Assembly: GCF_963921235.1 (NCBI RefSeq)
Contig: NC_086108.1
Location: 2,480,001-2,544,000 of the forward strand
Direction: 5' to 3'
DNA length: 64,000 nt
Source of the DNA: Mobula hypostoma
Lineage: Eukaryota
The first letter of the stretch is position 1, and every line of letters begins with the position of its first letter. Below are positions 2,296 through 48,545 of this stretch, piece after piece. The notes under the pieces are model-generated. The model searched no databases and was not told where the DNA came from. It worked only from the letters and a program-made list of their open reading frames with translations. The translations under genes and the position numbers were made by a program.

Positions 2296-2553
2296 GTAAA
2301 AGTAAATGTGCTAGACTGCTCAAAAACAGTTTTTTAAAAAAAGTAACCAGAATCAAGGAACACGTGCAACAGGAACCTGAAATTCCCCTAAAATGAACCT
2401 ACAGCCTCTCTGATCAATTCTTACAACATGGATCCCAAGACTCCTGCACTCCGACAGCAACTAGCAAGAGGAAGAGGAAGATCGGTCAAACGCTGGCAGA
2501 CGGTGCCAAGCACCTGCTAGTCCTCCATTCTCATTCATGTTAACTTCAACCTT

Positions 2554-3568: not shown

Positions 3569-4284
3569 TGAGTCCTTGATGCCACAATTGGAAAGAACCA
3601 ATAAGGTTGATCATGGGCTTGTGCCCTCAGGTCTCAGTTGGAGAGAAGCAAGGGAGTTGATCCTGTCTCCAGTCTGCACACTCCTCTCCAAACCTCACTG
3701 AACTCCCTCAGAGACAGCAAAACGCCAGATCGCTCAATTGGTCCAAAAATGCACCATCAAAATGTAAATCGCAGGTTCCAATCGCATGCAGCTTAGTAGC
3801 AGAATCATATTTGGAAGAAGAAGTGAAAGTAGGTTTGTAAACTGTCTGCAGGACTTCGCCTTTGGTCGCATTATTCGCTGGCGCCACCTTGAAGATATCA
3901 GGGACTTTTCCAGTGGATCTAGAACATTAACCATATTTCTCTTTCATAGGTGCTACTTGACCTGAAAAGTGTCTGTACCCTTTTCTCTTTTCAATCACTA
4001 AATGCAAAAATGATGTTTTATTGCTCCTTACTGAATTGCATTAATGAAGTGTTTGTCCAAAGATCAAAATGAATTTATTATCAAGATATGTATATGCTAC
4101 CATATACTGCCTTGAGATTCATTTTTCTTGCAGGCATTGCAGGGGGAAAAACATACAGTAGAATTTATGAAAAATTATATTTACATAGACAATGACTGAC
4201 AAACAACCAATGTGCAAAAGAAGATAAGCTGTGCAAATAAAAACATAATACTGAGAACATGAATTCCATCTCTGAAACTTAGCT

Positions 4285-7155: not shown

Positions 7156-7159
7156 TTAA

Positions 7160-7880
7160 GGAGTTGAAAGTCCATAGGTTGAGTCATTTCTGAGTTGAGA
7201 TGAGTGAAGTTATCCACTCCAGTTCAGTTACCTGATAGTTGTAGGGTAATACTGCCTGTGTGGAACCAAAGGCTTCTGTACCTTCTGCCAGATGGTAGTA
7301 GTGAGGAGAGGGGATAGCCTGGATAGTGGAGATTTCTGATGGATGCTGTTTTATTGTGCACACTCCATGTAAATATGCTCAATGATGGGGAGAGCTTTTG
7401 TGGTGTTGGACTGGGTTGTATCCACCACTGTTCAGAGCTAAGGTGAGTGAAGTTATCAGTGTTGGTTCAGGAGCCTGATGGTTGAAGGTTAATAACTCTT
7501 CTTGAACTTGGTGGTGTGGGGCCTGAGGCTTCTGCCCGATGATGGTGAGAAGAGGTCCTGGTCTGGATAGATTCTGCTTTCTTGTGCCATGCTCCATGTA
7601 AATTGTACTCAGTGGTGAGGAGGGTTTTTCATGTGTTGGATTGGGCTGTATCCAGTACTTTCTGTAGCCTTTTCCATTCCTGGCCATTGGTGTTTCCATA
7701 CCAGGCCATGACTCAACCAGTCTGGATACTCTTCTCTGCGCATCTATAGAAATTTGTCAGTTTTATCTGAGGTTATGAATTAAAGTGCAAAATTCTAAGA
7801 AAGTAGAGGTGCTGCATTGTCTGATTAGTGATGACACTTGTGTGCTGGTCCCAGGACAAATTCTCTTACATGTTAAATCC
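7160..7880 (-). mobile_element. Rex1/Babar-type LINE 3' fragments
   Basis: Degenerate matches to the TTRFRNSYYPSAIRLLN-type C-terminus that is clearer at 18909-19139. Confidence 0.6.
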
Positions 7881-20199: not shown

Positions 20200-21295
20200 T
20201 GTAATTCCCTTTTCTCAGTTTCTTCGCCTCCTCCGCATTTCTTTCTGGGATGCGGCTTTCCAATCCAGGACATCAGAGATGTCCTCCTCCTTTTAAAGAA
20301 CAGGGTTTCCCTCCCTCTACTGTTGATGCTGCCCTTTCCGCTGCTGTAATAGTGATAAGAGTCCCTCTTGTCCTTACCTCCACATCCAACAGACTATCTC
20401 CCTCAACTTCTGCCATCTCCAAAGGGATCCTACCGCTAAACATGTCTTTACCTGCCCCCTTCTGCTTTCCACAGGGATTGCTCTTCGTAATTCCCTTGTC
20501 CATTCATTCCTCCCCACTAATCTCTGCCCGGCACTTATCCCTTTCAACTGGCCAAAGTGCTACAACTGCTCATTCAGCTCCTCTCTCACCTCCATTTAGG
20601 GCCCCAAACAGTCCTTCCAGGTGAGGCAACACTTCACCTTTGAAGCTGCTGGGATTGTCTATTGTGTCTGGTGCTCCCAATATGGCTTCCTCTGCGGTAG
20701 TAAAACCCATTATAAATAGGAGGACAGCTTCATCAAACACCTCTGCACCATCCGCCGCAAGCGGAACTTCCCAGTGGCCAAACATTTTAATTCCCATTCC
20801 CATTCTGACACATCAATCTATGGCCTCCTCCTCTGCCAAGATGAGGCCACCCTCAGGGTGGAGGAGCAACACCTTATATTCCATCTGGGTAGCCTCCAAC
20901 CTGATGGTATTCCTAAAGCTAAACAAATCTCCCAGTGCCCACCCACCTTCCTCTATTCCCCACTCTGACATTTCACTTCTTCCCCCTGGATCCCCCTCCT
21001 TCCCCTTCTCCTGTTGTCCACTCTCCTATCTTATCAGATTCCTTCTTCTCCAGCCCTTGACCTTTCCCACACACCTGGCTTCACCTATCACCTTCTGGCT
21101 AGCCTCTCTCCCCTTCCCCCAACCTTTTTATTCCGGCATCTTCCCCCTTCCTTCTCAGTGCTGAAGAAGGGTCTCTGCCTGAAACGTCAACTGTTTACTC
21201 TTTTCCAGAGATGCTGCCTGACCTGCTGAGTTCCTCCAGCGTTTTGTGTGGGTTGCCTTGGATTTCCAGCCTCTGCAGACTTTCTTGTGTTTGTG
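20200..21295 (+). mobile_element. Penelope-like element 3' fragment
   Basis: RVPLVLT, HFNSHSHS and LRVEEQHLIFHLGSLQPDG motifs. Tail has ctgaagaagggtctctgcctgaaac. Confidence 0.85.
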
Positions 21296-25044: not shown

Positions 25045-27632
25045 ATTGACGATCAACAGTAGCGCATCTTCCACTGCTCTGCTCACTCTATACCCATGAC
25101 CTTTGTGGCTAGGTTTTGCTCAAATACCATAAATTTGCTGATGATACAACTATTGTTGGTAATATCTCAGATGGAAATGAAAGGGCATACAGGAGCAAGA
25201 TATACTAGTTATTTGAGTGTTGTCGCAGCAACAACCTTGTACTCAATGTCAGTAAGAGCAAAAAGCTGATTCTGGACTTCAGGAACAGTAAGATGAGGGA
25301 TTATGAACCAATTCTGATAGTGGGATCAGAAGTGAGCGATTTCAAGTTTCTGCATATCAAGAACTTTGAGGATCTAATCTGGTCCCAGCATACTGATGCA
25401 GCTATAAAGAAGGCAAGACAGCGGATGTATTTCATTCGGAGTTTGAAGAGATTTGGTTTGTCAGCAAAAACACTTGAAAACTTCTGTAGATATACCATGG
25501 AGAGCATTCTGACAGGCTGCATCATTGTCTGGAATGGGGAGGTGGGGGAGGGTGCTACTACACAGGATTGAAAAAAGCTAAAGAAAAGTTGTAAAATTAG
25601 TTAGCTCTATATTGGATACTAGCCTCCATAGTATCCAAGACATCTTCAAGGAGCAGTGCCTCAGAAAGGTGACATCCATTATTAAAGACTCCCCCATCAC
25701 TCAGGTGCCCTCTTCTCATTGTTACTGTTAGGAAGGAAGTACAGAAGCCTGAAGGCACACATTCAGCAATTCAGGAAAAGCTTCTACCCCTCTGCCATAC
25801 GATTCCTAAATGGACATTGAACCCATGAGCACTACCTCACTTTTTTAAAATACATATTACTTAGGTTTTTGTACTACTTTAAATCTTTTATGTATATATG
25901 ATATATATACAGTGGCGTGCAAAAGTTTGGGTGCCCCGGTCAAAATTTCTGTTACTGTGAATAGTTAAGTGAGTAGAAGATAGACTGATCTCCAAAAGTC
26001 ATAAAGTTAAAGATGAAACATTCTTTTCGACATTTTAAGCAAAATTAATGTATTATTTTTGTTTTGTACAATTTTAGAGTGAAAAAAAGAAAAGGAGCAC
26101 TGTGCAAAAGTTTGGGCATCCCAAGAGATTTGAGTTCTCAGATAACTTTTACCAAGGTCTCAGACCTTAATTAGCTTGTTAGGGCTATGGCTTATACATA
26201 GTCATTGTTAGGAAAGGCCAGGTGATGCAAATTTCAAAGCTTTATAAATACCCTGACTCCTCAAACCTTGTCCCAACAATCAGCAGCCATGGGCTCCTCT
26301 AAGCAGCTGCCTAACACTCTGAAAATTAAAATAAATGATGCCCACAAAGCAGGAGAAGGCAATAAGAAGATAGCAAAGCGTTTTCAGGTAGCCGTTTCTT
26401 CAGTTTGTAATGTAATTAAGAAATGGCAGTTAACAGGAATGGTGGAGGTCAAGTTGAGGTCTGGAAGACCAAGAGAACTTTCCGAGAGAACTGCTCGTAG
26501 GATTGCTAGAAAGGCAAATCAAAACCCCCGTTTGACTGCAAAAGACCTTCAGGAAGATTTAGCAGACTCTGGAGTGGTGGTGCACTGTTCTACTGTGCAG
26601 CGACACCTGCACAAATATGACCTTCATGGAAGAGTCATCAGAAGAAATCATTTCCTGCGTCCTCACCACAAAATTCAGCATCAGAAGTTTGCAAAGGAAC
26701 ATCTAAACAAGGCTGATGCATTTTGGAAACAAGTCCTGTGGACTGATGAAGTTGAAATAGAACTTTTTGGCTGCAATCAGCAAAGGTATGTTTGGAGAAA
26801 AAAGGGTGCAGAATTTCATGAAAAGAGCACCTCTCCGACTGTAAAGCACAGGGGTGGATCGATCATGCTTTGGGCTTGTGTTGCAGCCAGTGGCACAGGG
26901 AACATTTCACTGGTAGAGGGAAGAATTAATTCAATTAAATACCAGCAAATTCTGGAAGCAAACATCACACTGTCTGTAAAAAAGCTGAAGATGAAAAGAG
27001 GATGGCTTCTACAACAGGATAATGATCCTAAACACACCTCAAAATCCACAATGGACTACCTCAAGAGGCGCAAGCTGAAGGTTTTGCCATGGCCCTCACA
27101 GTCCCCCGACCTAAACTCATTGAAAATCTGTGGATAGACCTCAAAAGAGCAGTGCATGCAAGACCGCCCAAGAATCTCACAGAACTAGAAGCCTTTTGCA
27201 AGGAAGAATGGGCGAAAATCCCCCAAACAAGAATTGAAAGACTCTTAGCTGGCTACAGAAAGTGTTTACAAGCTGTGATACTTGCCAAAGGGAGTGTAAC
27301 TAAGTACTGTTATGCAGGGTGCCCATTTGGGCCCTTTTCCTTTTTCGTTATTTTGAAAGTGTAAAAGATGGAAATAAAAAAGTAATCTTGCTTAAAATAT
27401 TAAAGAAATATGCCATCTCTAACTTTATGCCTTTTGGAAATCAGTTCATCTTTTACTCGCTTAGCTATTCACAGTAACAGAAATTTTGACCAGGAGTGCC
27501 CAAACTTCTGCATGCCATTGTATATTAGTGTAATTGATTTATTTTTTTCATTCTATATTATCTTGTATTGTATTGTACTGCTGCTGCTAAGTTAACAAAT
27601 TTCACAACACGTGCTGGTGATAATAAACCTGA
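25045..27632 (+). mobile_element. Rex1/Babar-type LINE 3' part, split by the Tc1 element
   Basis: LLCSLYTHD, KFADDTT and KKARQRMYFIRSLKRF..ESILTGCI motifs. The tail resumes after the Tc1 at 27521. Confidence 0.8.
25910..27520 (+). mobile_element. Full-length Tc1-like DNA transposon (1611 bp), transposase frameshifted near its C-terminus
   Basis: TA-cagtggcgtgcaaaagtttggg ... cccaaacttctgcatgccattg-TA with long TIRs. ORF from ATG 26289 has a paired-like HTH, RSGRPR, WTDE, QQDNDPKH and SPDLN/IENLW (DD34E). Confidence 0.95.
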
Positions 27633-29143
27633 GCAATACAGACAAAATGTTGAAGGAACTCAGCAGGCCAGGCAGCATCTAGGAAAAAAGTACAGTTGAT
27701 GTTTCAGGCTGAAATCCTTCGGCAGGACTGGACAAAAAAAGCTGAGGAGTAGGTTTAAAAGATGTGGGGAGGGGAAAGGGAAACACAAAGTGACAGGTGA
27801 AACCTGGAGGGGGAAGGATGAAGTAAAGAGCTGGGAAGTTGACTGGTGAAAGAGACCAAAGGCCGTGGAAGAAAGAAAAAGTGGGAGGGGCACCAGAGGG
27901 AGGCGATGGGCAGGCAAGGTGATAAGGTGAGAGAGGGAAAAAGGGATGGGAAATGGTGAAGTGGGGGTGGGGGGGCATTACCAGAAGTATGAGAAATCGA
28001 TGTTCATGCCACCAGGTTGGAGGCTACCCAAACGGAATATAAGGTGTTGCTCCTCCACCTGGAGTGTAGCCTCATCACGATAATGGAGGAGGCTATGAAT
28101 GGACATATCAGATAGGAATGGTAAGTGGAATTAAAATAGGTGGCCACTGGGAGATCCCGCTTTTTTCTGGCAGATGGAGCGTAGGTGACTGGCGAAGCTG
28201 TCTCCCAATCTTACGTCAGGTCTCACCGATATACTGGAGGCCACACTGGGGGCACTGATCACATTATATGAACCCAACAGACACACAGGTGAGGTGTCGC
28301 TTCTACTGGAAGGACTGTTTAAGACCCTGAATGGTAGTGAGGGAGGAGATATAGGGGCAGGTGTAGCACTTGTTCCACGTGCAAGAATGAGTACCAGGAG
28401 GGATGAATGGATAAGGGAGTCATGTAGGGAGCGAGCCCTGTGGAAAGCAGATATGGGGGGGAGGGGTGGGAAAGTTGTGCTTGGTGGTGGGATCTTGTTG
28501 GGGTGGCAGAAGTTTTGGAGAATCATGTGTTGGACACAGAGGCTGGTGGGGTGGTAGGTGAGGACAAGAGGAACCCTATCCCTAGTAGGGTGGCGTGAGG
28601 ATGGGATAAGAGCAGACATGCATGAAGTGGAAGAGATGCAGTGTCTGTTGGGGTCATGTACTGTGTTTGTGCTCCCGGTGTGGCCTCCTGTACATTGGTG
28701 AGACCCGACGTTAATTGGGAGACCACTTCATCGAGCACCTACACTCTGTCCGCCAGAAAAAGCGGGATCTCCCAATGGCCATCCATTTTAATTCCACTTC
28801 CCATTCCCATTCCGATATGTCCATCTATGGCCTCCTCCACTGTTGTGGTGAGGCCACACTTAGGCTGGAGGAATGACGCCTTATATTCTGCTTGGATAGT
28901 CCCCAACCTGATGCATGAACATCAATTTCTCAAACTTACGGTAATGTCCCCACCACCCCCTCTTCACTATTTCCCATCCCCTTTTCCCTCCCTCATGTTA
29001 TCTGCTTGCCCACCCATCGCCTCCCTCCCTCCCCCTTCTTTTATCCATGGCTTTCTGTCTCTTTCACCGTCCCAGTTCTTCACTTCATCCCTCCCCCTCC
29101 AGGTTTCACCTGTTACCTTGTGTTTCTCTCTCTCTCCCCCCCC

Positions 29144-32100
29144 CACCTCAATGATTAGCCATTTGATCCGTGAGGCCAAGCAGAAAAAAGGTGACCTAAC
29201 AGTTGTCTGGTTAGACCTCGCGAACTCCTACAGGTCTATTCCACATGACCTCATCCTAGAAGGACTCGACCACTTCTATATCCCAGTGGCTATTCGAGAC
29301 ATGATCACCAGCTACCTAGGAGGATTCAAACTCAGATTTACAACAGCCCATTTCACAACTAGTTGGCAGGCCCTCCAGAAGGGGATTCCAACAGGGTGCA
29401 CCACCTCCCCCATCCTATTTATTATGGGAATGAACCTCCTATTATCAGCAGCAGAAGATGTAACCCGTGGCCTGACGCTGGAGTCGGGCATTGTTCAGCC
29501 GGCTCTACGAGGGTTCATGGACGACATCACTATAACAACTGTGTTACATGTCCAAGCAAGATGGGTATTGGAAACCCTGGGTAATGTAGCCACTTGGGCG
29601 AGGATGTCTTTCAAGGCCAAGTAGTCCAGGTGCATGGTGATGAGAAAGGGCAAAGTTACTAGCAAGTTTAGCCTCCAAGTTCCGGGTGAGGTCATCCCTT
29701 TCATCGAAGATAATCCGATAAAACGTTTGGGGAAGTAGTTTAATGTGTCACTGACAGATGGGGCCAATGTCACCAATGCTGTGAAGCAGACAGACGAATG
29801 GTTGAAGAAGATCGACAAATTCAGACTTCTGGGTAAATTCAAGACCTGGCTGTACCAATACAGCCTTCTGCCCAGGCTTCTCTGGCTCTTCACACTTTAT
29901 GAGATCCCCTGACTGCCGTAGAGGGCATCAAGAGGAAAACCAACAAGCACCTGCGGAGATGGTTGGGAGTTCCCCCAAGCTTCTCTTCAGTGGGCCTCTA
30001 CATTCGTTCTGGGCAACTGCAGCTTCCCCTGTCATCTGTTGTGGAGGAATTCAAGGTGGCAAAATACAGAGCTTTATTAAGCTTGGGAGATTCCAATGAC
30101 GTCTTGGTAAAGCAAGCAGGTGTTACAACCAGATCTGGGTGCAAGTGGGCAGCCAACGCAGCTGTGGAGGAGGCAGTGTGTTCTCTGAAGCTGCGAGATA
30201 TCAGTGGCAACCCCTGCATCGGGTGGCAAGACCTCGGCTCAGTTCACTTCCAGCAGTGGGGAAACGCAAGCATAAGGAACAAGCGAGACATGGTATAGGC
30301 GTCCGTGAGGAAGTGAAGCAGATGTCAAAGGCAGTGTGTTACATACTCCGTAACTGGGTTGCCAAACCAGCAGAAATGGATCACTTAGTTGGAGTCAGGT
30401 TTAACAGAAACTAATAAAGTTTTATTAAAGAAATAAGTAACACAGTACTCTGATCGTAAAGATATAAATGCAACAGGATAAAACACACATGTAAACAGGA
30501 CTAGGGTAATAGGAATCAATCAAGCTCTATCGCAGTCTAGGGGTAAAATGATCAGTCTCGAGTGATGCAGAGTTCAGTTCATCTTAGTGCAGTTTGCAGT
30601 AATCGCTGTTGTGCCATTGGAGAGAGAGAGAGAGTGCAAATTTTGATTCAAACAGACCTTTGTTCTTCACAGTTAGCTTTCGGGTGAACCCTGTTATGTC
30701 TTCTGTGGTCACCGACTGTGACCCCTGCGTTCTGGATACGACCGTTCTTCCGCGGTGAACCCGGCACCCAGGCAAGGGCGGACACACACACCAGGTTCCC
30801 GCTGATCGTACCTTTTCACCCTGTGCGTCTATGGTCAGTTCCCGCGACCAGACCTCCAAACACGCACCAACTTGTGGGGGCACACCGCTCTTCCAGGGTC
30901 TCGTTATCTCGTGATCTCGTGGTGTGTGTCGTGCCTTAGCAAACCTGTTCTTTTTATCCCTCTGCTGGGGTATCGCCTGTCCATCAAACTTCAAACAGTT
31001 CAGGTTCAAAGCAACCGGTCTGTCAATATTCTGAAATGTGTTTCTTTCTCGTTAATCTCTTTCTTCTCTCTCATTAGCATTTTGAATGTTTCTCCATTAT
31101 CTCACTCATCTCTGTCATCAGCATCAATCTTCTGATAACTTGGTTTGTCGTCACACCCCTATCCTTCAAAGGATTTTTACCGGGGTAAAAATTATAGGCA
31201 TGAATATATTATTAGATACATACTAATATACAGGGTCATCAGCTATTCGGCTAATACAGAGAACTTAAAGTTGTCAACACCTTGACAGACAGTCAGCAAT
31301 TACATTTTCCGGTCCTTTTATATGTTTTATTTTAATATCAAGTCCCTCTAAGACCAGGCTCCAACTGAGTAACCTTTTGTTTTTATCCTTCATAGTGACC
31401 AAAAACACTAATGGGTTATGATCAGTGTAAACTCTCAGTGGTTTCCGTACCGGACAAATATAGCAAAGGTCGTCCCACGCAAACTTAGCATTCTTTGGCA
31501 AGAGCTTAGTAAGAGGGAGGGTAATATCTGCCAAGTTTTTTGCAAAACTTCCGATAGTACCCCACCATCCCCAAGAACCTTCTCAGGGCTCTCTTGTCTG
31601 TCGGGGTGGGGACTTCAGAGACAGCCCGCACCTTAGCCTGCATCGGTGCCAGCTGCCCCGTCCTACCACAAATCCCATATAAGTGACCGTCGTGTGGCCG
31701 AATTCACTTTTTGCGAGGTTCACTGTCAGGCTGGCTTCAAACAGCTTTTTAAACAGTTCCTCTACTGCCACAATGTGCCCCTCCCACGTGTCACTCCAGA
31801 CCACTAAATCGTCAATATACGCTTCTGCGTTCCTTAGCCCTTTTGTCACTGAATTAATCATCCTATAGGGGTATTGCTTACTAGGCTGACCTGATGTGAC
31901 AACAACACCATGTCCCGGCTCTTTGCATCGCCTCGGGACATCCGGACATAACGTCTGCGTGCCAGTTAGTTAGCTTTATCAGCGGCTCGCTCTGTTCAGG
32001 GGTTATGTGAGAGAACTCATCAGCAAAGTTGGCCAAAACAATAGAGTTCTCCCATCTGGTCGGCACCATACTTATCTTTCCAAAATGGGTTTTCCCCTTA

Positions 32101-35100
32101 TCAGGTGGCACCCTAGCCTCATTAATTTTCGTGATAAGACCAACTAGATCTGTTTTCTGATCGTGGTAAGCTTTAAACATGTTAATAACTTGTAACTGTG
32201 TGAGCTCACGTCTACAATAGTCAATAGCATCCTTCCTCCTGTGCGGCCAGTAAAACTCTTTCATGATTCTATCGACTGTTTTCTTCACCCCAAAATGTCC
32301 ACCGAGGGGTATCTTGTGGGCCAGGTTACAAATCTCATCCCCATAAATTTTCGGTACTACCACCTGGTGTACCACCCCCCATTCCTCATCTGCGGGCACA
32401 GTACGTGGTTTCCATTTCCTTATTAGTACTCCCTCCTTCACATAATAGCCCACTGGCTCCCTTTTTAATTCTGCTTCAGAGAGAGCTGCCTCCGCCAAAA
32501 CCATCAGCTCCTCGTCTCGCTCCTGTGCCTGTATAAATTCCTTCCTTGCTAATGATAAGTCTACCTCAACTTCCGTTTCACTACGCCCCTTCTCACTTTC
32601 TAACCCCTCCTGGTACAAGGCTGGTAAAAACGTCTCAGCTAAATCTACATTCGCTTCGTCAGCCTTTCTGGACATGCGCCGAGTCACTGCGCAAACGGGA
32701 TAAACCTGTGAGTCCATGGGCGGGGCCTCAATGCTGGCAGGCTGGCTTGTCAATCTTACTGCTGAGAACACATTTCCGCCGGCGAGGTCATTACCGAGTA
32801 AGACCTCCTCGTCATCCATAAGTAGTTCATGCCTCACCCCGATTGTGACCGGTCCGGAGACCAAGTCGCTTTTTAGATGTATCTGGTGCAAAGGTACTGC
32901 TTCAGTCCCTTTCCCAATGCCTTTTATCACCCTGACCTCCCCAGTCTGGGTCTCTGAGCTAAAGTCTAACACACTCTTTAAGATCAATGACTGACAAGCT
33001 CCAGTGTCTCTCCAGATCCGTACTGGAACCGGGTTTAACCCCTTCTTCACCGACACCAATCCGACCGAGATAAACTTCTCGCGCTCTTCCTGAACTTTAT
33101 CAGATCTCTTCTCCCCTGGCGGTTTGTTTGCCAGCTCAGTACAGCCAGTCAGAACCGTCGTTTTTCCTTTCCCTGTCTCCTTCTTTGGGGCAAAGCACCT
33201 GGACGCAAAGTGTCTGGCTTTCCCACAATTATAGCATACGACCCCAGGAGACTTCTTACCAAACTGTTCCCGATCTTCCTTATCCTTCTCACTAGTCCCC
33301 GGCTTACTTTCTGACTTTTCTGGCGGACTCTCTCCGCCCTCTTGACTACCCTTCTGGTAGCTTTTACTGGGGGTAAACTTCGCTTTGTGCGTTAACGCGT
33401 ATTCATCCGCTAACTTAGCAGTTGCGGCTAAGGTTTCTGCCTCTCTCTCATCTAGATAGGGCCTCATACCTTCAGGGACACAACCTTTAAACTGCTCAAT
33501 CAGTATTAGCTTTAGCAGTCTGTCATAATCCCCACTGACCCCTTTCGAGGTGCACCAATGCTCACAATATGTCTGCATCTCACGGGCAAACTCTAAATAC
33601 GTGCAGCCCCACTGCTTCCTCACATTCCGGAACTTCTGCCCGTATGCCTCCGGGACCAACTCATAAATCCCGAGTATCGCCTTTTCCACCACATCATACC
33701 TCTGGGCATCTTCTGCAGACAATGCCGAGTAAGCTTGCTGGGCTTTTCCTTTAAGTACGCTCTGAAGCAAAACAGCCCACTTATCCCTCGGCCAGTCCTG
33801 ACTTGCAGCGACTTTTTCAAAATGGAGAAAGTACCGATCAACATTGGCCTCCTCAAATGGGGGAACCAGCCTAACCTCCTGGGTCGCCCTGAACCCTCCA
33901 CCTTGGTTCGGCATGGGCCCCTGCGCTAGCGTCATCCTTGACTTTTCCAGCTCAAATTCCCTTTCCTTCTGTTTCTCTCTCTCTCTTGTCGCTCTAACTG
34001 CCTCTCTCTCTCTTGCCGTTCTAACTGTTTCTCTTCTTGTTCTAGCTGCCTTACCCGGAACTCGTGCTCGAGTCTCAATTTTTCTATCTGCAGCTGCACC
34101 GCTTCTCCACCAGGTTTTCCTATAGATACCACCTCCAGCTCCCCTTGGGGAAACACACCTCTTGATACATAATGCTGTATGATAGATCTGTGCATCTCTG
34201 CCCTCCTCATTGTCGACTTCCCCTTAAAAAGATTCAGCTGTTTGGCCACAGTTGCCAATTCTGATTTCCTGGCATCCTCTAATGCCTCCAAGGTTGGCGC
34301 CTTTAGAAATTCCTCAATCTTCATTTCTGCTGTTTGCCCTTCCTTTCTTTCGGGAATTTTAACCCAATCAATTTACCCGGTCCCAAATTTGGCGTTCAAA
34401 ATCCCGGACGGGATCTCCACTTACCTTACGTACCCCGTAACTGGGTTGCCAAACCAGCAGAAATGGACCACTTAGTTCGAGTCAGGTTTAACAGAAACCA
34501 ATAAAGTTTTATTAAAGAAATAAGTAACACAGTACTCTAATCGTAAGGATATAAATGCAACAAGTTAGCAATGATAAAACACACATGTAAAACAGAACTA
34601 GGGTAATAGGAATCAATCAAGCTCTATCGCAGTCTGGGGGTAAAATGATCAGTCTCGAGTGACGCAGAGTTCAGTTCAGCTTAGTGCAGTTCGCAGTAAT
34701 CGCTGTTGTGCCGTTGGAGAGAGAGAGAGAGAATGCAAATTTTGATTCAAACAGACCTTTGATGTTCTTCACAGGTAGCTTTCGGGCGACCCCTTTTATG
34801 TCTTCTGTGGTCACCGACTGTGACCCCTCCGTTCCGGATACGACCGTTCTTCCGCAGTGAACCCGGCACCCAGGCAAGGGCGGACACACACACCAGGTTC
34901 CCGCCGATCGTACCTTTTCACCCTGTGCGTCTATGGTCGGTTCCCGCGACCAAACCTACAAACTCCACCAACTTGTGAGGGCACACCGCTCTTCCAGGGT
35001 CTCGTTATTTTGTGATCTCGTGGTGTGTGTCGTGCCTTAGTGAACCTGTTCTTTTTATCCCCCTGCTGGGGTATCGCCTGTCCATCAAACTTCAAACAGT

Positions 35101-36067
35101 TCAGGTTCAAAGCAACCGGTCTGTCAATATTCTGAAATGTGTTTCTTTCTCGTTAATCTCTCTCTTCTCTCTTATTAACATTTTAAATGTTTCTCCATTG
35201 TCTCACTTCTCTCTCTCATCAGCATCAATCTTCTGATAACTTGGTTTGTCGTCACAAGTGGAACAAGGGTCCCAGGGTGCATGGACAAAATGGGATCTCC
35301 CTAAGTGCAAGATCTTATGGTGAGAGTTATGGAGGCTGGAGCCCCTCCGTATTTCCTTCCTCTTATGATCCGTGTATAACACCCTTCCTTCACCATTACA
35401 TCTGTACACATGGGGGATGAGAGAGGACCCAAACTATAAGCTCTGTGGTCAAGAGGGGACACAGGCTCATATACTGTCTGAGTGTAAAACATCTCTAACT
35501 CAAGGACGGTATAGGTGGCGCCATGATAAGGTGCTTCTGGCTCTTGCTGACACACTAGAGTGGGAGAGATGCAAGAAGAGGACAGCTGGCACAGATTTGA
35601 GGAAGGCCATCACCTTCATCAAAGAGGGAGCCAGGCCTTTCGTAACCAAACAACCAAAGCCCAATCTGCTGCTAACAGCCAGGTTCTGGGAGATGAGGGT
35701 CGATGTGGGAAGGAGATTGTAGTTCCCGGGTGTGATGCACACAACCCTACGCCTGGACATTGTACTGTGGTCAACCAAAGACAAGAAAATAATTCTGGTT
35801 GAGCTGACTGTGCTGTGGGAAGAGGCCCACGAGATAAAGGCCTTGAAGTACCAGCCCTTAGTGCAGGAGTGTAAAGACAAGGGATGGCAGGCATGGTTGT
35901 TCCCTGTGGAGATCGGCTGCAGAGGTTTCCCAGCCAAATCAGCATGGCTGTTGTTGTCAGATCTGGGCCTGGACGAAAGGAGCAAAAAACAAGCAACTCG
36001 TAGGATGGGGGAAGAGGCAGAACGAGCCTCTTGTTGGATTTGGAGTAGGCGAGAGGAGGGGAGCTGA
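29144..36067 (+). mobile_element. HERO-like (R2 superfamily) non-LTR retrotransposon, 3' half: RT core, CCHC, restriction-like endonuclease; split by the Gypsy element
   Basis: VWLDLAN, KGIPTGCTTSP and GFMDDIT (RT); CKTSLTQGRYRWRHDKVL; R.DIVLWS..KIILVELTV.WEE..KALKY..FPVEIGCRGF (RLE). Stop at 36065-36067. Frame continuity MSKAV|EQGSQG across the LTR insertion. Confidence 0.9.
30337..35256 (-). mobile_element. Gmr1-like Gypsy LTR retrotransposon, internally deleted (4.9 kb)
   Basis: LTRs at 30337-31155 and ~34424-35256, TG...CA outer ends, 4-bp TSD AGTG (30333-36 and 35257-60). Degenerate tRNA-Pro-like PBS at ~34401-34419 and PPT next to 31156. Gag with SCAN-like region and CYNCGKARHFASRC knuckle, protease RDTGA, integrase zinc-binding region, then RT YIDD and RNase H (TDHNPL, NVIADCLSR). 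Confidence 0.93.
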
Positions 36068-36191
36068 AGCCAGGAGCAGATGGGCAGTGATTTGGCCACC
36101 ACTGCTGGCCCACCAACTGGAGAGTGTCGTGGTTAAGGTTCGAAACACTCGGTGAAGGTTGGGAACCACCTGATGACATCTGCTCCTGGCT
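36068..36191 (+). ncRNA. Putative hammerhead ribozyme with permuted/pseudoknotted topology; predicted cleavage after GUC at 36128
   Basis: CUGAUGA at 36170-176, GAAA at 36142-145. Stem III gagtgt/acactc, stem I gtggtt/aaccac. A 15-bp perfect stem (36068-82 with 36177-91) closes it. Activity is untested. Confidence 0.65.
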
Positions 36192-36413
36192 GAAGGCTAC
36201 AGTTACCTTATACGGTAACTGGAGAATGCACCCTAACAGGTGTATGTAACAAGTAATCTCTGGTATGTATCAGTGGCTTCCAGGAAAGACTGGATGGTAA
36301 CCGAGGAAGGTTGGTGACACTGGAGAGACAGCTGACCTCCAGGAAAGACTGGCACCGGCTCACAAGGCTAGCAACCTTGTGGGCAGCGCTCACAAGAGGG
36401 CACCACTCAAGTT

Positions 36414-38416
36414 ATGACTGAACACGAAGAGCAATACCCCCAGAGTCTCCGGAGAGCGGGGGAGGATGAGAGACTCAACAGGATGGTCATACTGGCAATG
36501 GCCAGGACAGGAAACACGACCACGAGGAAACTAAAGCAAACAACACTGACCAAAGAGGAATTCACAGTAAGGTGTCATTGTGGGAAAGTCTGCAAAAACA
36601 TCAATCAGAGAGCTCAAGATACACGGGAGCAGGTCTAGATGTGGATCAATGGTGACCCAAGTGCAGCACATGAACTTAGTGTCCGGTGAGACGGAGGAGA
36701 ATTCCAGCCAGGAAGCACCCCACAGAGCTGAAGATCTCTCTGTACTTGAGTCGCCTCAGCACCAAACAACAGACCAAGTGAGTTCCTCTTCGGCTACCCC
36801 AATCCATTCGTCAAGGAAAGACGGGATCAAATGGCCTAGATCGTCAGACAACGTCGCCTGGATGCAGTTCAATGATGATCTAGACAGCATCCTGGAAGTT
36901 GCCTTAGCAGGTCCAGTACACAGAAAGGTCAACTCACTCACAGCCATAGCGTACAAACTCGCTAAGGAACGATTTGGCCCAATGGAGCAGAGAAGCCAGC
37001 CCGAGTTACCGCGGCAACCAAATAGGAGGGAAGCGGAGATTCGTTGCTTGAGAGGCGAATTAAAGGCGCTCAACAAGAGGTTTAAAACCAGCTCACCGGC
37101 CGAAAAAGAAGGTATCAAGGACATAACCAGTATGCTGCGGGAAAAGCTGTGCAAACTCCGGAGGGCGGAACATCTGCGACAGCAAAGAAGGAAGAAAGAG
37201 AACAGGCAAGTGCAGTTTGTGAGAGATCCATTCAGCTTCACCAGGACTCCTCTCGGCCAACAAAAATTTGGTATACTATTCAGCTTGAAGACAGAGGTAG
37301 AGGAGTTCCTGCGGGAGGCACACAGCGATCCACGGAGCGGTCAGGGAGTAGGAACCAATCGGCCTGTGCGTAGACTGGAAAATCCATCAATTGAGCTGAA
37401 TGTGAAGGAGCCTACATGGCAGGAAATCCAGGACATCATCCGGAAAGCTAAAGCATCAGCTGCCCCAGGCCCAAGCGGCATACCTGATAAAGCCTAAAAC
37501 TTCGGAGGCTGTGGAAGATCATGAGAAAGAGCTGGGCCAAAGGTACTATTCCATCAAGTTGGTGTCGGAGAGCTGATCAGAGCTCGAAATTTTCAGATGA
37601 CTCAGAGTCGGACTGGGGTCGGGCATGGCAGGGAGAGTTTTTCTTCCTTCTCCCGTCTGTGTGAGAAGAGGGACATTTGAGAAACTTTGAACTTTACTGT
37701 GCTCATGGACTTCTTCATCAAGTTACGGTATTGTTGCACTGTTGTAACTATATGTTATAATTGTGTGGTTTTGTCAGTGTTTTTCAGTCGTGGTCTGTCC
37801 TGTGTTTTGTGATATCACACCGGAGGAAATATTGTATCATTTCTTAATGCATGCATTACTAAATGACAATAAAAGAGGACTACGTGTCTTCATAATCTAA
37901 ATTGGCAGAGGGATGCTTTATTCCAAAAGAAGAGGATTCTTCCACAATTGCCCAGATTAGGACAATTTCTCTCCTGGATGTGGAACATAAGATTTTCTTT
38001 TCTGTGCTCACAAGGAGGCTGATTTCTTACATGACGCAGAACTGCTATATCAACACATCCATCCAGAAAGGCGGTATTCCAGGCCTTTCAGGGTGTCTGG
38101 AACACACCTCAATGATTAGCCATTTGATCCGTGAGGCCAAGCAGAAAAAAGGCGACTTAACAGTTGTCTGGTTAGACCTCGCGAACACCTACGAGTCTAT
38201 TCCACATGACCTCATCCCAGAAGGATTCGACCACTACTACATCCCTGTGGCTATTCGAGACATGATCACCAGCTACCTAGGAGGATTCAAACTCAGATTT
38301 ACTGCAGCCCATTTCACAACTAGTTGGCAGGACCTCCAGAAGGGGATTCCAACAGGGTGCACCACCTCCCCCGTCCTATTTATTATGGGAATGAACCTCC
38401 TATTATCAGCAGCAGA
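36414..38416 (+). mobile_element. HERO-like retrotransposon, 5' half (N-terminal zinc finger to RT domains), lying downstream of its own 3' half
   Basis: ATG at 36414; CHCGKVCKN..LKIH zinc finger (frameshifted); KAKASAAPGPSGIP, FIPKEE, QIRTISLLDVE and QKGGIPGLSGCLEH. The last 312 bp (38105-38416) repeat 29144-29455. Confidence 0.9.
37563..37900 (+). mobile_element. Short retroposed 3'-tail insertion inside the HERO 5' half
   Basis: Ends ttcttaatgcatgcattactaaatgacaataaaagaggact...cataatctaa. Related copies at ~11590-11667 (+) and ~15118-15380 (-). It interrupts the HERO frame (IPSSW | LAEGCFIPKE). Confidence 0.7.
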
Positions 38417-39179
38417 TCTACTCCTCAGCTTTCTTTTTTCCAGTCCTGCCGAAGGGTTTCGGCCCAAAACGTCGACTACTCTTTTCCTTGATGCTGCCTG
38501 GCCTGTTGAGTTCCTCCAGCATTTTGTGTGTGATGCTCGGATTTCTGGTATCTGCATATTTTCTCGCTTGTGATAATAGACCTGATTCCAATTCTGATAT
38601 TAAACTTATTCTGATAGTGAAAAGTAGTGAAGTAATTTCAGAATCAGATTTAATACCACCGGCATATGTCGTGAAATTTGTTAAGTTTGTGGTAGCAGTA
38701 CAATGCAATGCATAATAATATAGAGAAAAATAATTGTAGTCAGCTCTGGATCACTTCATATGTCTACTAGTATGGTGCCAGATTCAGTGTGTGTTGGTAT
38801 TGGTCCTACTGTGATCATGATTATTTATTTGTGAAGAATCAGTGTTTGGATTAACACTTTGGAGCACATACTGAGTTTGTTTGTACATGTTAATTCACTT
38901 TCATTAATATTTATCACACCCCCTCTTGTAGAGTAGTGACTCAACTCTTGCGGACCCCACCCCCCCATCCCTCATTTTGATTTTATTGGCTGCTCTGCTT
39001 TGAACTGTGCCTTTTTATTGTTTTGCGGTTTAATTAGTGCAAAATACTGTGTGTGTGTGAATCTCAAGATGATTTGTAACAGAGCCAGATTAACTGGTTT
39101 ACAGTAAATTTCTCCCATTGCATTCTAGGATTGTGTGTGACTCTTTTCTATTAGAATATCCACTCCCTCACTGTTTTAT

Positions 39180-39435
39180 TTTTTTTATTGCGATATGACG
39201 TGGAACGGGCCTTCCAAGGTATGCCACTCAGGAACCCCGATTTCATCCTAACCCAATCGTGGGGCAATTATCCTGCCAACCAGCATGTCGTTGGACTGTG
39301 GGAGGAAGCCCAGAGGAAACCCACGTGGTCACGGAGAGAACATACAAACTCCTTTTACAGGCAGCAGCAGGAATTGAACCTAAGTCACCTGTACTGAAAA
39401 GTGTTGTGCTGACCACTATACTACCATGCCACCCT
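39180..39435 (-). mobile_element. V-SINE
   Basis: Reverse V-domain ggactgtgggagg..cccagaggaaacccacg and tRNA-like head. Confidence 0.75.
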
Positions 39436-39689
39436 GTAGCCACTCCCATTCCCATGTAAATTTATTTTCAAAAAATGCATCTAACACCTGATACTAACCG
39501 AAAAGGCTAAGATGGTGGCGTGCTCAGATACAGCAGCCTCTACGAGGTCAACCAAAGGCACTATTGTCTTTTTAAAATTTTTATTTGATTGCAAGACCCT
39601 GTTGGACATTAAGAACTTAAATGACAGCAGATCTACCAAATCAGTGAGCTGCTCGTTGGCAGAGAAACTGAAGGAGCTGGACTTACGAC

Positions 39690-42600
39690 CATGAGACATA
39701 GGAGCAGAATTAGGCCATTTAGCCCAGCAAGTCTGCTCCACCATTTAATCATGACTGATCCTTTTTTTTTTACCCTCCTCAGCCCTTTCCCCATAGCCTT
39801 TGAACTGTGGTCAATCTACACCCTATCAATCTCTGCTTTAAATACCTCCAGTGACCTGGCCTCCACAGCTGCCTATGTAACACACTTAAGCTCTATCTAG
39901 TTCTTTCAACATTCGATAGGTTTCAGTGAGATCCTCTGCATTCTTCTAAAATCCAGTGAGTACAAGTCCAAAGCTGCCAAAAGCTCCTCGTATCTTAACC
40001 CCTTCATTCCCGGAATCATCCCCATGAACCTCCTCTGGACTCTCCCAATGACGACATATCCTTTCTGAGAGATGGGGCCCAAAACTATTGACAATACTCC
40101 AAGTACGGCATGACTAGTGCCTTACAGTGAGAGTAAGAGTTCGGCACGGACTAGAAGGGCCGAGATGGCCTGGTTCCGTGCTGTAATTGTTATATGGTTA
40201 TATGGTTATAAAGTCTCAGCATTATCTCTTTGCTTTTATATTCTATTCCCCTTGAAATAAATGTTAACATTGCATTTGCCACCTTTACCACAGACTCAAC
40301 CTGTAAATTAACCTTCTGGGTGCCTTGCACAAGGACTCCTAAGTCCCTCTGCACCTCTGATGTTTGAACTTTCTCCCCATTTAGATAATAGTCTGTGCTA
40401 TTGTCCCTTTAGTGAAAATGTATTATCATACATTTCCCAACACTGTATTCCATCTGTCACTTTTTTTTGTCCATTCTTCCAATTTGCCTAAGTCCTGCTG
40501 CAATTGCATTGCTTCCTCAGCACTACCTACCCCTCCACCTATCTTCGTATCATCCACAAACTTTGCAACAAAGCCATCAATTGCATTAAACAAATCATTG
40601 ACAATGTGAAAAGTAGCAGTCCCAATACTGGCCCATGAGGAAAACTGCTAGTCACCGGCAGCCAACCAGAAAAGGCCCCTTTTATTCCCACTCGCTGTCT
40701 CCTGCCTGTCAACTATTCCGCTATCCGTGCCAATATCTTTCCTGTAATGCCATAGGGTTTTATCTTGTTAAGTAGTCTCATCTATGGAACCTTATCAAAC
40801 ATCTTCTGAAAATCCGAGTATATGACATCCACTGCCTCTCTTTTGTCCACCCTGCTTGTTGCTTCCTCAAAGAGCTCTAGCAGATTGTCAGGGAAAATTT
40901 TCCTTTACAGAAACCATGCTGACTTTGATTTAGTTTATCATTAGTCTCCAATTACCCCGAAACCTCATCTTTAATAATAGACTCCAACACTTTCCCAGCT
41001 AGTGAGGTTAGGCTAACTGGCCTATAATTTCCTTTCTTTGTCTTTCTCCCTTCTTAAAGTGTGGAGTGACATTTGCAATGTTCCAGTCCTCCGGAACCAT
41101 GCTAGAATCAAGTGATTCTTGAAAGATCATGGCCAAGGCATCTGTTATCTCTTCAGCAACCTCTCTGGACTCTGGAATGTAGTCTGTCTGGTCCAGATGA
41201 CTTATCCACCTTAAGACCTTTCAGTTTGCCTAGCACAGGGGTCCCCAACCTTTTTTGCACTGCGGACCGGTTTCATACTGACAATATTCTTGCGAACTGG
41301 CCGACTGGGGGGGAATGGTTGCCAACGGACAAGAGTAGCAATCAAATATATTGTTTACCCCAAGAAAGACTACAATGACCATGAAGCCTTGCACGGGCTC
41401 CAGTGCACATGCGTGAGCGTGCACGTGCCGATTTCTTTTCTGCAAATCGTTATTGGCGATTCTGTCTGGGGAGGGGGCTGTTAATCACGACCGGAATATA
41501 GGTGATGGGTGGCTAATACACTCAATTTCGTTTCTGAAAGGGTTTATCTAACGAATTTAATATTAAACACACAGCGCATATTTTCCTCGCATGAATATAG
41601 CGATGTCAATTATCAGGGGAGGACAGGGGAGCTTGAAGTAAGTGTTGAACGAACTTCCAGTAGAAGTGGTAAAGGCAGGTTCAATATTATCATTTAAAGT
41701 TAAACTGGACAGCTATATGGACAGGAGAGGAATGCAGGTTGGTGGGACGAGGTGAGTGTAGCGTTTGGCACGGACTAGAAGGGCAGGGATGTTCTATATC
41801 CATGCTGTAATTGTTATATGGTTATATAAGTCACTTCTAAGTTAATAGCATCATAACATTTTAAGTAATGTTTGGATATTAAACACACAGCACATGTTTT
41901 CCTCGTTATGAACATATAAAATTATTGCAACGCACCAATATCGCTGAATCAGTGGGAGCCCTGGGCTGAATACTTGTTTCCCTGCAACAAGACGGTCCTA
42001 TGGAGGGGTGATGGGAGACAGCGATACTCGAATGGGTTCCTTATGTCCAGTCTATTCCGCAACTTAGTTTTCGTTGCATTCATTGCAGGGTTATGTTGGA
42101 AATGGAAGCAATGTTTTCAGTGCTTCCGTGTCTATCTCAGGATATTTAGCCTTGACTTTGATCCGGAATGCCGGCAGAGATGTTATGTCAAACATACTTT
42201 TCAGCCTGGCCTGCTGCGTTCACCAGCAACTTTGATGTGTGATACTTTTCAGCCCGCCGTCATTGGCAAACTCAAGGAGTTGATCTCCTTCCCGCTCTGA
42301 CATGGATGACGCATGCGTAATAAGCTCGCGTGCATTCGAGCTCAACAATGGGCGTGACAGGGGATGAGGAAAGGTGCAGCTGACTCATATCACCAATCAT
42401 ATCGTTCCCTCGCGACCCGGTAGCACATGCCTTGTGGCCCAGTGGTTGGGGACCGCTGGCCTAGCAGTTCTACCTTTGTAATAGCAATGACGCTCACTCC
42501 TGCTTCCTGATACTCATGGACCTCTGGCACACTGCTAATGTCATCCACAGTGAAGACAAATGCAAAGTACCCATTAAGTTCATCTGCCATTTCTTTGTCC

Positions 42601-46654: not shown

Positions 46655-48545
46655 CTCGTAGTTCGTGCACCCCGCATCTCCCGTTTCTACCTTCTACCCA
46701 AGATCCACAAACCCGCTTGTCCAGGTAGACCCATTGTTTCAGCTTGTTCCTGCCCCACTGAACTCATATCTGCATACCTCAACTCTGTTTTATTCCCCCT
46801 AGTTCAGTCCCTTCCTACCTACTTCTGTGACACTTCACAAGCTCTTTACCTTTTCAATGATTTCAAATTCCCTGGCCCCCATCATCTTGTTTTTAACTAT
46901 GGATGTACACATCCCTGTACACATTCATCCCTCACCAGGAAGGCCTCAACCCTCTCTGTTTTTTTCTGGACACCAGACCTAACCAGTTCCCCTCCACCAC
47001 CACTCTCCTCTGTCTAGTGGAACTTGTCGTCAATCTTAGTAATTTCTCCTTTGGCACCTCCCACTTCCTCAGACAAAAAGGTGTAGCCATGGGCATTCAC
47101 GTGGGTCCCAGCTATGCCTGCCTTTTTGTCGGCAATGTGGAACAGTCTATTTTCCAAACCTACACTAGTGGCTATCCCCCACTTTTCTTACACTACATTG
47201 ACGACTGCATTGGTGCTGCTTCCTGCACACATGCGGAACTCGTCAACTTCATCCATTTTGTCTCCAACTTCCACCCTGCCCTCAAATTTACCTGGTCCAT
47301 TTCCGACACTTTCCTCCCCTTTCTCAATCTCTCTGTCTCTTTCTCTGGAGACAACTTACCTACTGATATGTATTATAAACCCACGGACTCTCACAGCTAC
47401 CTGACTATCTCTTCCCACCCTGTTACTTGTATAAACACCACCCCCCTCTCTCAATTCCTCCACATTTGCTTTCAGAATGAGGCTTTTAATTCCAGAACGA
47501 AGGAGATGTCCACTTCCTTAAAAGAAAGAGGCTTCCCTTCCTCCACCATCAACACCTCTGTCATGCACATCTCTTCCATTTCGCGCACATCTGCTCGCAC
47601 CCCATCCTCCCACCACCCTAACAGGGATAGGGTTCCTCTTGTCCTCACCTACCACCCCACCAGTCTCTGCGTCCAACACGTAATTCTCCACAACATCTGC
47701 CATCTCCAACGGCGTCCCACCACCAAGCACCTTTCCCTCCCCCCACTATCTGCTTTCTGCAGGGATCGCTCCCTATGCAACTCCATTCTCCATTCATCCC
47801 TCCCCACTGAGCTGCTTTCTGGCACTTATCCTTGCAACTGGAACAAGTGCTACACCTCCTACCTCACTACCATTCAGGACCAGGTGAGGTGACACTTCAC
47901 CTGTGAGTCTTTTGGGGTCATATACTGTGTTGGTGCTCCCTGTGTGGCCTTCTGTATATCGGTGAGACCCAATGTATATTAGGAGACCACTTCGCCAAGC
48001 ACCTACACTCCGTCTACCAGAAAAAGCAGGATCTCCCAGTGGCCACCCAGTTTAATTCCACTTCCCATTTCTATTCTGATATGTCTATCCATGGCCTTCT
48101 CTACTGTCTCAATAAGACCACACTCAGGTTGGAGGAACAACACCTTATATTTTGTCTGGGTAGCCTCCAAAATGATGCCCCCCCACCCACCATTCCACAT
48201 CCCCTTTTCCCTCTCTCACCTTATCTCCTTGCCTGCCCATTGCCTTCCTCTGGTGCTCCTCCCCTTATTTCTTTCTTCTATGGCATTCTGTCCTCTCCTA
48301 TTAATTCCCCCATCTCCAGCCCAGTATCTCTTCTCACCAATCAGCTTTCCATCTCTTTATTTCACCCCTCCCCCCTCCTGGTTTCACCTATCACCTTGTG
48401 TTTCTCCCTTCCCTCCACCCAACTTTTGACTCTACTCCTCATTTTTTTTTCTTCAGTTGTGCTAAAGGGTCGGCCAGAAATGTCAACTGTAATCTTTTTC
48501 GTAGATGCTGCGTGGTCTACTGGGTTCCTCCAGCATTTTGTGTTT
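46655..48545 (+). mobile_element. Penelope-like element (RT, GIY-YIG, terminal repeat), 5'-truncated and degenerate
   Basis: FYLLPKIHK..PGRPIVS, SLYT.IP, GVAMG, YIDD and YYKPTDSHSYL (PLE RT), followed by the GIY-YIG region. Confidence 0.92.

Follow-up and report, generated by a model that had tools for sequence, protein, structure and literature searches.

A tail-less, head-to-tail R2-type retrotransposon insertion in Mobula hypostoma with a hammerhead-core domain beside its joint

In the cited portions of PMC8557442 and PMC11167929, Penelope-like elements are described as frequently truncated at the 5' end, with a partial copy joined head-to-tail before a full copy, a hammerhead-type motif by the joint, a fixed and tail-less start of reverse transcription, and a proposed multi-copy RNA template. 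A passage of PMC11167929 adds that the protein of one such element binds multi-copy RNA and starts synthesis internally, with the hammerhead by the joint, that a minor product starts at the RNA 3' end, and that in vitro hammerhead cleavage is dispensable, uncut RNA being the main substrate. Within the relevant part of PMC8557442, partial tandems accompanied by hammerhead motifs count as a Penelope-like hallmark, one not observed in target-primed reverse transcription of elements without long terminal repeats (non-LTR elements). Here we describe a long interspersed nuclear element (LINE) that resembles Penelope-like elements in each of the features listed first, its pseudo-LTR (partial tandem) organisation recurring in its family and relatives. 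Unlike them, it encodes a protein nearest to R2 (E 6.6e-45) and then to LINE-1 ORF2p, and it does not show their combination of a GIY-YIG domain and a telomerase-like reverse transcriptase (RT). The copy in question occupies positions 29144-38416 of a 64,000-nucleotide stretch of the Mobula hypostoma genome (NCBI RefSeq assembly GCF_963921235.1, contig NC_086108.1, positions 2,480,001 to 2,544,000 of the forward strand); this whole stretch is called the window below, and coordinates refer to it.

Textbook non-LTR elements have no terminal repeats. HeT-A, likewise non-LTR, has its RNA initiated within the 3' end of the neighbour upstream, so that new copies are tagged at their 5' end with 3' sequence; it forms telomeric arrays and carries poly(A), whereas the copies of the present family are dispersed and tail-less. 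The restriction-like-endonuclease LINEs (R2, R4, NeSL, CRE and HERO), like this LINE, have one open reading frame (ORF; ∼1090 aa) with an N-terminal zinc finger, RT, and a zinc knuckle and PD-(D/E)xK-type nuclease that in this LINE are putative. They also have in common with it a structured, tail-less 3' untranslated region (UTR) and an enzyme family that jumps between templates. In such LINEs a self-cleaving ribozyme is tied to RNA processing; here the corresponding feature is a hammerhead-core domain for which cleavage is predicted. R2 is site-specific in ribosomal DNA and has a ribozyme like that of hepatitis delta virus at its 5' end, in contrast to the dispersed family studied here with its hammerhead core in the 3' UTR. 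According to the part of PMC11371274 relied on here, R2 proteins switch from one template to another and give rise to tandem insertions in head-to-tail order. Retrozymes carry hammerheads in direct repeats around the unit, an arrangement also found here that would permit excision and circularisation of the unit RNA, and a rolling-circle-like copying has been proposed for animal retrozymes. Retrozymes, however, are short, non-coding and dependent on other elements, while this element is 3.7 kb long and encodes its own enzyme. In the open-access literature, we found no description of partial tandems or hammerheads in restriction-like-endonuclease LINEs, or of the hammerhead strand order reported below.

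Layout of the insertion, its family and its relatives

Read on the + strand, the block runs from the RT through a nested LTR element into the CCHC/restriction-like-endonuclease region and its stop codon, then through 346 tail-less bases to an ATG at 36414, the N-terminal region and once more the RT (Table 1). Its two ends are a direct repeat of 312 bp that aligns without gaps at 95.5% identity, with 14 substitutions, nine of them transitions. The element unit measures 3705 bp, and the insert minus two intruding sequences amounts to 4013 bp, or 1.08 units. The initial annotation of this DNA had reported the same coordinates and counts (the 312-bp repeat with its 14 substitutions, the stop, the ATG, a monomer of ∼3.7 kb and ∼1.08 units), all of which were correct; the tail-less run from the endonuclease region and stop into the element's own 5' UTR and ATG was likewise confirmed.

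The block is one insertion event at a single point of a host repeat, because two paralogous host copies, one at 48341-48543 and the other at 27625-27800 in the opposite arm, run uninterrupted across that point. The earlier claim of a single event was thus borne out. At the insertion site ∼10 host bases are lost, a target duplication is absent, and 1-3 bases of possible microhomology are found at each end.

The family is abundant (7116 first-look candidates in the genome), and 51 other copies were mapped on window coordinates; individual copies and loci are given by L or c numbers where needed. The window layout is the usual one of the family, namely partial unit, joint and unit, the sole difference being a non-canonical 3' end. 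A canonical tail-less 3' end at 36252-36257 was found in 16 of 20 copies in a first set, the other four ending at 35733, 35825, 36090 and 36206. In a second set it was found in 11 of 19; one copy there continues through a second joint, and seven were shifted by insertions and could not be judged. Beyond 16 of the canonical ends the sequence differs from copy to copy and is neither poly(A) nor microsatellite. Since the tail-less 3' end is fixed, reverse transcription would normally begin at a defined site by the structured 3' UTR. A tRNA-like 3' end was also sought, and ARAGORN returned no match in 35800-36600. Self-targeting, in which new copies land on old 3' ends, was considered as well and rejected, the flanks being unrelated at 16 of the 16 canonical ends listed.

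The 5' ends, by comparison, spread continuously from 36431 back across the joint into the nuclease and RT of the preceding unit, with no pile-up at the joint; the greatest reach upstream of the joint is 1094-2232 nt, in L003, c19, L004, c15, c07, c13, the window copy and L002. The joint between 36254 and 36255 is identical and free of indels in 31 of 31 aligned copies, and its spacer length is invariant in 20 of 20 matches with exact flanks (0-20 bases allowed). Because the joint is constant and shows no length variation, it would be carried by the template and not remade each time. A 30-mer across the joint has 76 matches in the genome (≤3 mismatches) versus 934 for a 30-mer at the 3' end, and two joints one unit apart occur at only one locus, c15, among the 76. 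A 5'-UTR probe at +69 has 180 matches versus the 76 of the joint, a number that may include other subfamilies.

Total copy lengths are continuous from ∼0.4 to 1.5 units. Five other copies end past a joint (L002 at 38160, L017 at 38052, L025 at 37949, L011 at 36965 and c15 at 36354), and L002 is a second permuted copy of 1.03 units. Target duplications are lacking in 15 of 19 canonical copies, so that their absence from the window copy is non-diagnostic; in the remaining four they are long (39 bp at L008/L033, 62 bp at L023/L039, 64 bp at L009/L034 and at least 178 bp at L006/L032). Given these uneven target duplications, second-strand cleavage seems widely staggered or variable. As a separate observation, copies that are independent and differ in their flanks have coinciding or closely grouped 5' ends in several regions, with four exactly at 36214, four in 35876-35883 and nine in 35983-36020, and with 36099-36130 as a further such region; these could represent RNA 5' ends (transcription initiated in the upstream unit), sites of pausing or founders of subfamilies.

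Relatives encoded on 69 metagenome contigs were examined, 16 of which were informative for the joint and 53 were not. The joint was present in 11 of the 16, where 416-484 nt separate a C-terminus from the N-terminus that comes next on the same strand; in the other five, no preceding C-terminus was seen in the sequence upstream of the ORF, which spans at least 1 kb. The upstream units of the relatives begin at varied residues, as expected from 5' truncation. Unit-length contigs show terminal redundancy of 55-265 bp at 89-100% identity, with periods of 3.6-3.8 kb. One contig, L101, holds two full units head-to-tail at 85-7266 that are 68% identical, each with one hammerhead-core domain. The head-to-tail architecture is therefore a property of the clade and no accident of one master copy.

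By sequence, the element classifies as a non-LTR retrotransposon with an R2-type RT and a probable restriction-like endonuclease at the C-terminus. With a profile built from nine relatives, the best matches among solved structures were to R2 (6.6e-45 and 1.3e-44), and LINE-1 ORF2p came next at ∼1e-29. P0001, an intact relative in the same genome, has a 679-aa reading frame with RT, CCHC knuckle and RPDIV...ELTVPWE...K. Profile positions 933-1020 align weakly (i-E 0.088) to residues 1052-1142 of the R2 chain, within the nuclease domain, where RPD.../KPD..., ELTVPWE/VDVTVRYE and K..KY correspond. Pfam models gave no match to the candidate PD-(D/E)xK nuclease region, and a search for a GIY-YIG domain came back empty at E up to 0.1. 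Copies of the family have variable 5' truncation and a common 3' end and lack LTRs or an integrase of their own, as LINEs do. Homologs at 45-66% identity were found in teleosts, amphioxus and bivalves. HERO is the only restriction-like-endonuclease LINE clade described, in the cited part of PMC4640811, as mostly non-site-specific, and is the likely candidate home of the family; this is indicated solely by the dispersed, non-specific mode of insertion and by the hosts in which relatives occur.

A hammerhead-core domain beside the joint

A hammerhead-like domain, conserved and covarying across the sequences compared, lies beside the joint, and its cleavage is predicted. A motif-blind set was assembled from the stop-to-ATG spacers of the window element and 11 relatives, chosen solely for having a joint. 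The invariant columns of these 12 junction sequences are GU, AAAC and CUGA-GA, which match the hammerhead core with position 7 alone free. The window domain directly follows the stop codon, with its core intact and one mismatch in stem II, and the predicted cut falls between 36128 and 36129, 126 nt upstream of the 3' end. In common with hammerhead types I-III, the domain has C3 U4 G5 A6 N7 G8 A9, G12 A13 A14 and A15.1-U16.1; G never occurs at H17, no core position other than 7 is free, G10.1-C11.1 is mostly kept, and the three stems covary.

The connectivity, in contrast, is not that of types I-III. The strands follow in the order 10.x, 16.x-H17-1.x, 11.x-GAAA-15.x, 2.x-CUGAUGA, which is no circular permutation of the known types and differs as well from the minimal type I motifs found in Penelope-like elements. 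In the layout obtained from the two alignments (A3 and A4), 16.x-H17-1.x and 11.x-GAAA-15.x share one hairpin whose stem is stem III, with 10.x upstream and 2.x-CUGAUGA downstream, so that stems I and II are pseudoknotted with the loop of the stem III hairpin. A long helix after A9 closes the whole domain, and two extra helices are conserved, one forming a small hairpin and the other lengthening stem III past an internal loop; neither the closing helix nor the stem III extension has a counterpart in types I-III. Judged from helix and linker lengths, and as inference only, the helix extending stem III would be incompatible with stems I and II, and the domain may switch between two folds if the extended stem III excludes those stems.

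Pairing was assessed in A4, which comprises 28 sequences aligned with MAFFT and not fitted to the structure. Paired cells amounted to 87.6% of the total, versus 63.2% in shuffles (0 of 500 as high) and 35-45% with slid partners, and compensatory changes were present in 37 of 41 pairs. The pseudoknotted stems I and II taken by themselves were 90.6% paired versus 62.0% when shuffled (0/500), with compensatory changes in 11 of 11 pairs; by stem, such changes affect 6/6 pairs in stem I, 5/5 in stem II and 4/6 in stem III, where the other two are invariant. RNAalifold independently recovered the four nested helices. In an unselected census the full motif was present in 30 of 45 3' UTRs. The 15 misses, by reading, consist of three with an AUA triplet and a compensating U15.2, eight with changes at single core positions, and three or four without the domain.

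The initial annotation had proposed a ribozyme at the junction; the hammerhead-core domain with covarying stems upholds this in part, but none of the Rfam families matched. Searches with the Rfam hammerhead and ribozyme models gave nothing at E up to 1-5 in window positions 26000-40000, 14 family copies and 15 relatives, and permissive runs returned only chance matches (a microRNA, isrG and a long non-coding RNA). The spacing at the ribozyme site is constant in 100 of the 100 matches listed, out of 448, and thus shows no scars. Copies that extend 187 nt or more beyond the joint in the upstream direction contain two hammerhead-core domains. The predicted cleavage dinucleotide, C17-G1.1 (36128-36129), is a CpG; in many of the genomic matches listed it has turned into CA or TG, so that most old copies would have an altered H17 or first stem I pair.

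Origin of the window copy

The reading we favour, and to which we give about an even chance, is that the window copy is the cDNA of a linear, longer-than-unit, head-to-tail RNA copied from a non-canonical start, as in Penelope-like elements. The RNA template of the family would exceed one unit and already contain the head-to-tail joint. Synthesis of cDNA would normally start without a tail at 36252-36257 and proceed upstream for a variable distance, and where it is long it would cross the joint into the 3' part of the preceding unit, giving a copy of a partial unit plus a full unit. In the window copy, synthesis would have started at the non-canonical position 38416 in the downstream RT, crossed the joint and stopped at 29144 in the upstream RT; the 312-bp overlap would be incidental, arising from the chance of product length. 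The hammerhead-core domain upstream of the joint probably processes the longer-than-unit RNA. We infer all three of these steps, the linear multi-copy template, the non-canonical priming and the cleavage by the domain. A head-to-tail multimer had been one option in the initial annotation, and the seamless joint, identical and of invariant length, fits it. The other option, a signature of slightly more than one turn around a circle, was not supported: most copies have the fixed 3' end, the very pattern that the annotation had named as speaking against it, and copy lengths form a continuum with no clustering just above 1.0 unit. The annotation had further held that a constant seamless joint together with many permutation points among mapped copies would favour a circle; the joint was indeed constant, but the start points alone vary freely.

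Several results weigh against this reading. No locus of sufficient length to have been the genomic source of the window copy was encountered, the longest sampled upstream parts being 2232 and 1919 nt, and a purely linear inherited template only shortens, so that something must renew the longer-than-unit templates. The two 312-bp copies are 95.5% identical to each other versus 95.8% to the best other member, with one private variant in common; because they are no closer to each other than to other members, a common source does not follow from sequence alone. All 51 mapped copies were picked with joint-spanning queries, and the proportions given above are biased accordingly. The non-canonical 3' end was checked by an empty site in the window copy alone, and those of the other five copies may reflect later cuts. 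The A4 sequences were picked by a pattern requiring the core letters, so that invariance of the core rests on the motif-blind set and the census. Of ∼52 copies, L022 has its 5' end exactly at the predicted cut and L018 one base later. As to the renewal of templates, a circle formed by paired hammerhead cuts, or precise template jumping, would do it; the unscarred joint, the unscarred ribozyme site and the scarcity of 5' ends where the cut is predicted give no means of choosing between the models.

A circular RNA of the retrozyme kind is an explanation that we hold possible though unlikely. In the transcript of a copy made up of a partial and a full unit, both hammerhead sites would be cut (between 36128 and 36129), the unit-length RNA ligated into a circle, and the RT would circle 1.08 times from 38416, the usual start being 36254. 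Conservation of the domain by the joint in the family and its relatives accords with this proposal, as do the two domains in copies that reach far enough upstream, the two joints of c15, and the abundance of products longer than one unit while genomic arrays are nearly absent (the one two-joint locus among the 76 joint matches). The window copy and L002 are both permuted just above one unit, and a circle would leave no length scars at the joint (20/20) or the ribozyme site (100/100 of those listed), although uncut RNA predicts likewise. The fixed 3' end of most copies and the continuum of 0.4-1.5 units need no circle, however; ribozyme activity is predicted from an unorthodox strand order, few 5' ends lie at the predicted cut, and the Penelope-like element, in the cited portion of PMC11167929, needs no hammerhead cleavage in vitro and uses mainly uncut RNA. 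It is also rather doubtful, in our estimate, that the R2-type LINE clade as a whole works in this way, a pseudoknotted hammerhead processing long RNA into unit circles around which the RT runs, with the window copy as a product of 1.08 turns. If that were true, copies of a partial plus a full unit would let the next generation remake circles.

Improbable, but bearing on the same joint, is end-to-end template jumping, in which synthesis would run from 38416 to the 5' end of one unit-length RNA, jump to the 3' end of a second RNA and continue back to the equivalent of 29144. The tandem of 68%-identical units on L101 is better accounted for by the union of two different RNAs than by a circle; yet the joint is strictly invariant (31/31 and 20/20) while solo copies have free 3' ends scattered over 36252-36257, and the joint lacks the pile-up of 5' ends expected from a defined RNA 5' end. 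A quite improbable event at the DNA level, with a break in the host foldback repaired with ∼4 kb from a genomic partial tandem or extrachromosomal fragment, would account for the missing target duplication, the ∼10 lost host bases, the microhomology of 1-3 bases at both ends and the position within a large inverted repeat; c15, also odd-ended, lies between 93.7%-identical inverted repeats of 1.8 kb. Against it, a missing target duplication is normal for the family (15 of 19 canonical copies), a donor of the required span was not found among the mapped copies, and the divergence of the window copy matches the family burst, a time of frequent RNA-mediated insertion. An assembly artefact, or two insertions (independent or in tandem) that deletions trimmed afterwards, is very improbable, even though the divergence between the 312-bp copies is about that of unrelated members of the family and the unitigs compared, short and drawn from many family copies, do not bridge 38416|38417. 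On both sides of the block the host sequence picks up again within ∼10 bases, and each trim would need to halt precisely where the element had first inserted, on which ground the alternative of two trimmed copies named in the initial annotation was rejected; moreover, the internal joint is the family standard and the assembly contigs are long (200 contigs, 3.48 Gb).

By its divergence, the window insertion dates from the family's single burst, the nested LTR element having entered soon after. Mutual identity of family members has a median of 93.6% and a maximum of 96.2%, and each 312-bp copy has 5-7 private sites relative to the family majority, one of them in common (38365 C, seen in 0 of 30 others). 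A within-copy test of common origin, comparing the upstream partial unit with the 3' part of the same copy and with other copies, gave ranks of 11, 4, 4, 1, 6, 2, 1, 4, 7, 10 and 3 of 11, and is powerless because the divergence of the family is star-like. The LTRs of the nested element (∼30337-31155 and 34426-35256) are 93.3% identical with gaps counted and 94-96% identical in ungapped blocks, in agreement with the earlier remark that the divergence of the terminal repeat roughly matches that of the LTR pair.

Features of the locus and meaning of the architecture

The features of the block and its flanks are listed in Table 1.

Table 1. Annotated features of the insertion and of the host sequence on either side (window positions).
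Feature	Position	Strand	Basis
Host foldback repeat, left of insertion	27543..29143		27761-28284 inverted versus 28641-29149; 29064-29141 matches 48341-48420
Upstream unit, 5'-truncated start within RT, up to LTR nesting point	29144..30336	+	Pfam RVT_1 from ∼29157, E 5.4e-14
Terminal redundancy, copy 1	29144..29455	+	95.5% identity to 38105-38416
Nested Ty3/Gypsy-type LTR retrotransposon, later arrival, foreign to the LINE	30337..35256	-	SCAN (gag), Integrase_H2C2, RVT_1 by Pfam
Upstream unit resumed: zinc knuckle and restriction-like endonuclease region, frame broken in window copy	35257..36067	+	translation
Hammerhead-core RNA domain, 3' UTR (cleavage predicted)	36068..36192	+	alignments A3/A4, covariation, RNAalifold, core letters, unselected census
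Closing helix of domain	36068-36082/36177-36191	+	
GUC of domain	36126-36128	+	
GAAAC of domain	36142-36146	+	
CUGAUGA of domain	36170-36176	+	
Remaining 3' UTR, two hairpins, up to canonical tail-less 3' end	36193..36254	+	fold z-score -3.1
Head-to-tail joint, …GTAACAAGT / AATCTCTGG…	36254..36255	+	same joint in other family copies
Downstream unit: 5' UTR, ATG 36414, N-terminal zinc-finger region	36255..37562	+	collinear with other copies; translation P0002
336-bp interspersed repeat, window copy only	37563..37898		other copies join 37562 straight to 37899
Downstream unit, first RT half, non-canonical 3' end	37899..38416	+	RVT_1 (37896-38573), E 9.1e-11
Terminal redundancy, copy 2	38105..38416	+	host sequence resumes at 38417
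Host foldback repeat, right of insertion	38417..38733		38417-38529 matches 48431-48543; 38418-38544 inverted versus 27625-27752

The stop codon of the upstream unit is the TGA at 36065-36067. The ends of the nested LTR element are TG...CA, and 4 bp (AGTG) are duplicated on either side of it; the junction from 30336 to 35257 is direct in other family copies, and the sole integrase in the block is that of this minus-strand element. LTRs of its family were also found at or near other LINE copies (loci L084, L046 and L026). Further copies of the 336-bp repeat were found elsewhere in the sequence examined.

The host foldback consists of two inverted copies (∼80-85% identity) of a repeat family of ∼1-1.8 kb that is common in the window, with members also at 861-1601, 20405-21256 and 46790-48543. 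Two members of this repeat family, 1.8 kb long, inverted and 93.7% identical to each other, enclose the odd-ended copy c15 (loci L093/L094). An inverted-repeat context was considered as a rule for odd insertions; the window copy and c15 fit it, L002 and three canonical copies do not, and the copies are few. A short core of an interspersed repeat, CCAGTCCTGCCGAAGGGTTTCGGCCCAAAACGTCGAC, occurs at 38431-38485, 27686-27740, 48450-48500 and at least eight more places. It resembles a decayed minimal hammerhead of the Penelope/retrozyme kind, with stem I, a CUGAUGA-like box, stem II, GAAAC and GUC, and had no Rfam match at E up to 1. A Tc1/mariner transposase remnant lies at 26226-27137 on the + strand (Sleeping Beauty-type HTH, HTH_Tnp_Tc3_2 and DDE_3), with terminal inverted repeats at 25905-26095 and 27333-27525; a 92%-identical copy of it adjoins L002 (L054 907-2526).

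Taken over the family and its relatives, an R2-type LINE clade in a vertebrate genome, together with many marine relatives, shows a Penelope-style architecture and a strongly covarying hammerhead-core domain whose strand order falls outside the curated models. If the domain cleaves, it would represent a new topology for the best-known ribozyme class and a new pairing of ribozyme and LINE. If the circular reading were true, these elements would be a protein-coding counterpart of retrozymes, and Penelope-like elements and R2-type LINEs would share one solution. If the template is multi-copy or circular, the finding would bear on how R2-type enzymes choose their start site, on the evolution of pseudo-LTRs, and on the tandem insertions that may arise when R2-type enzymes serve gene insertion.

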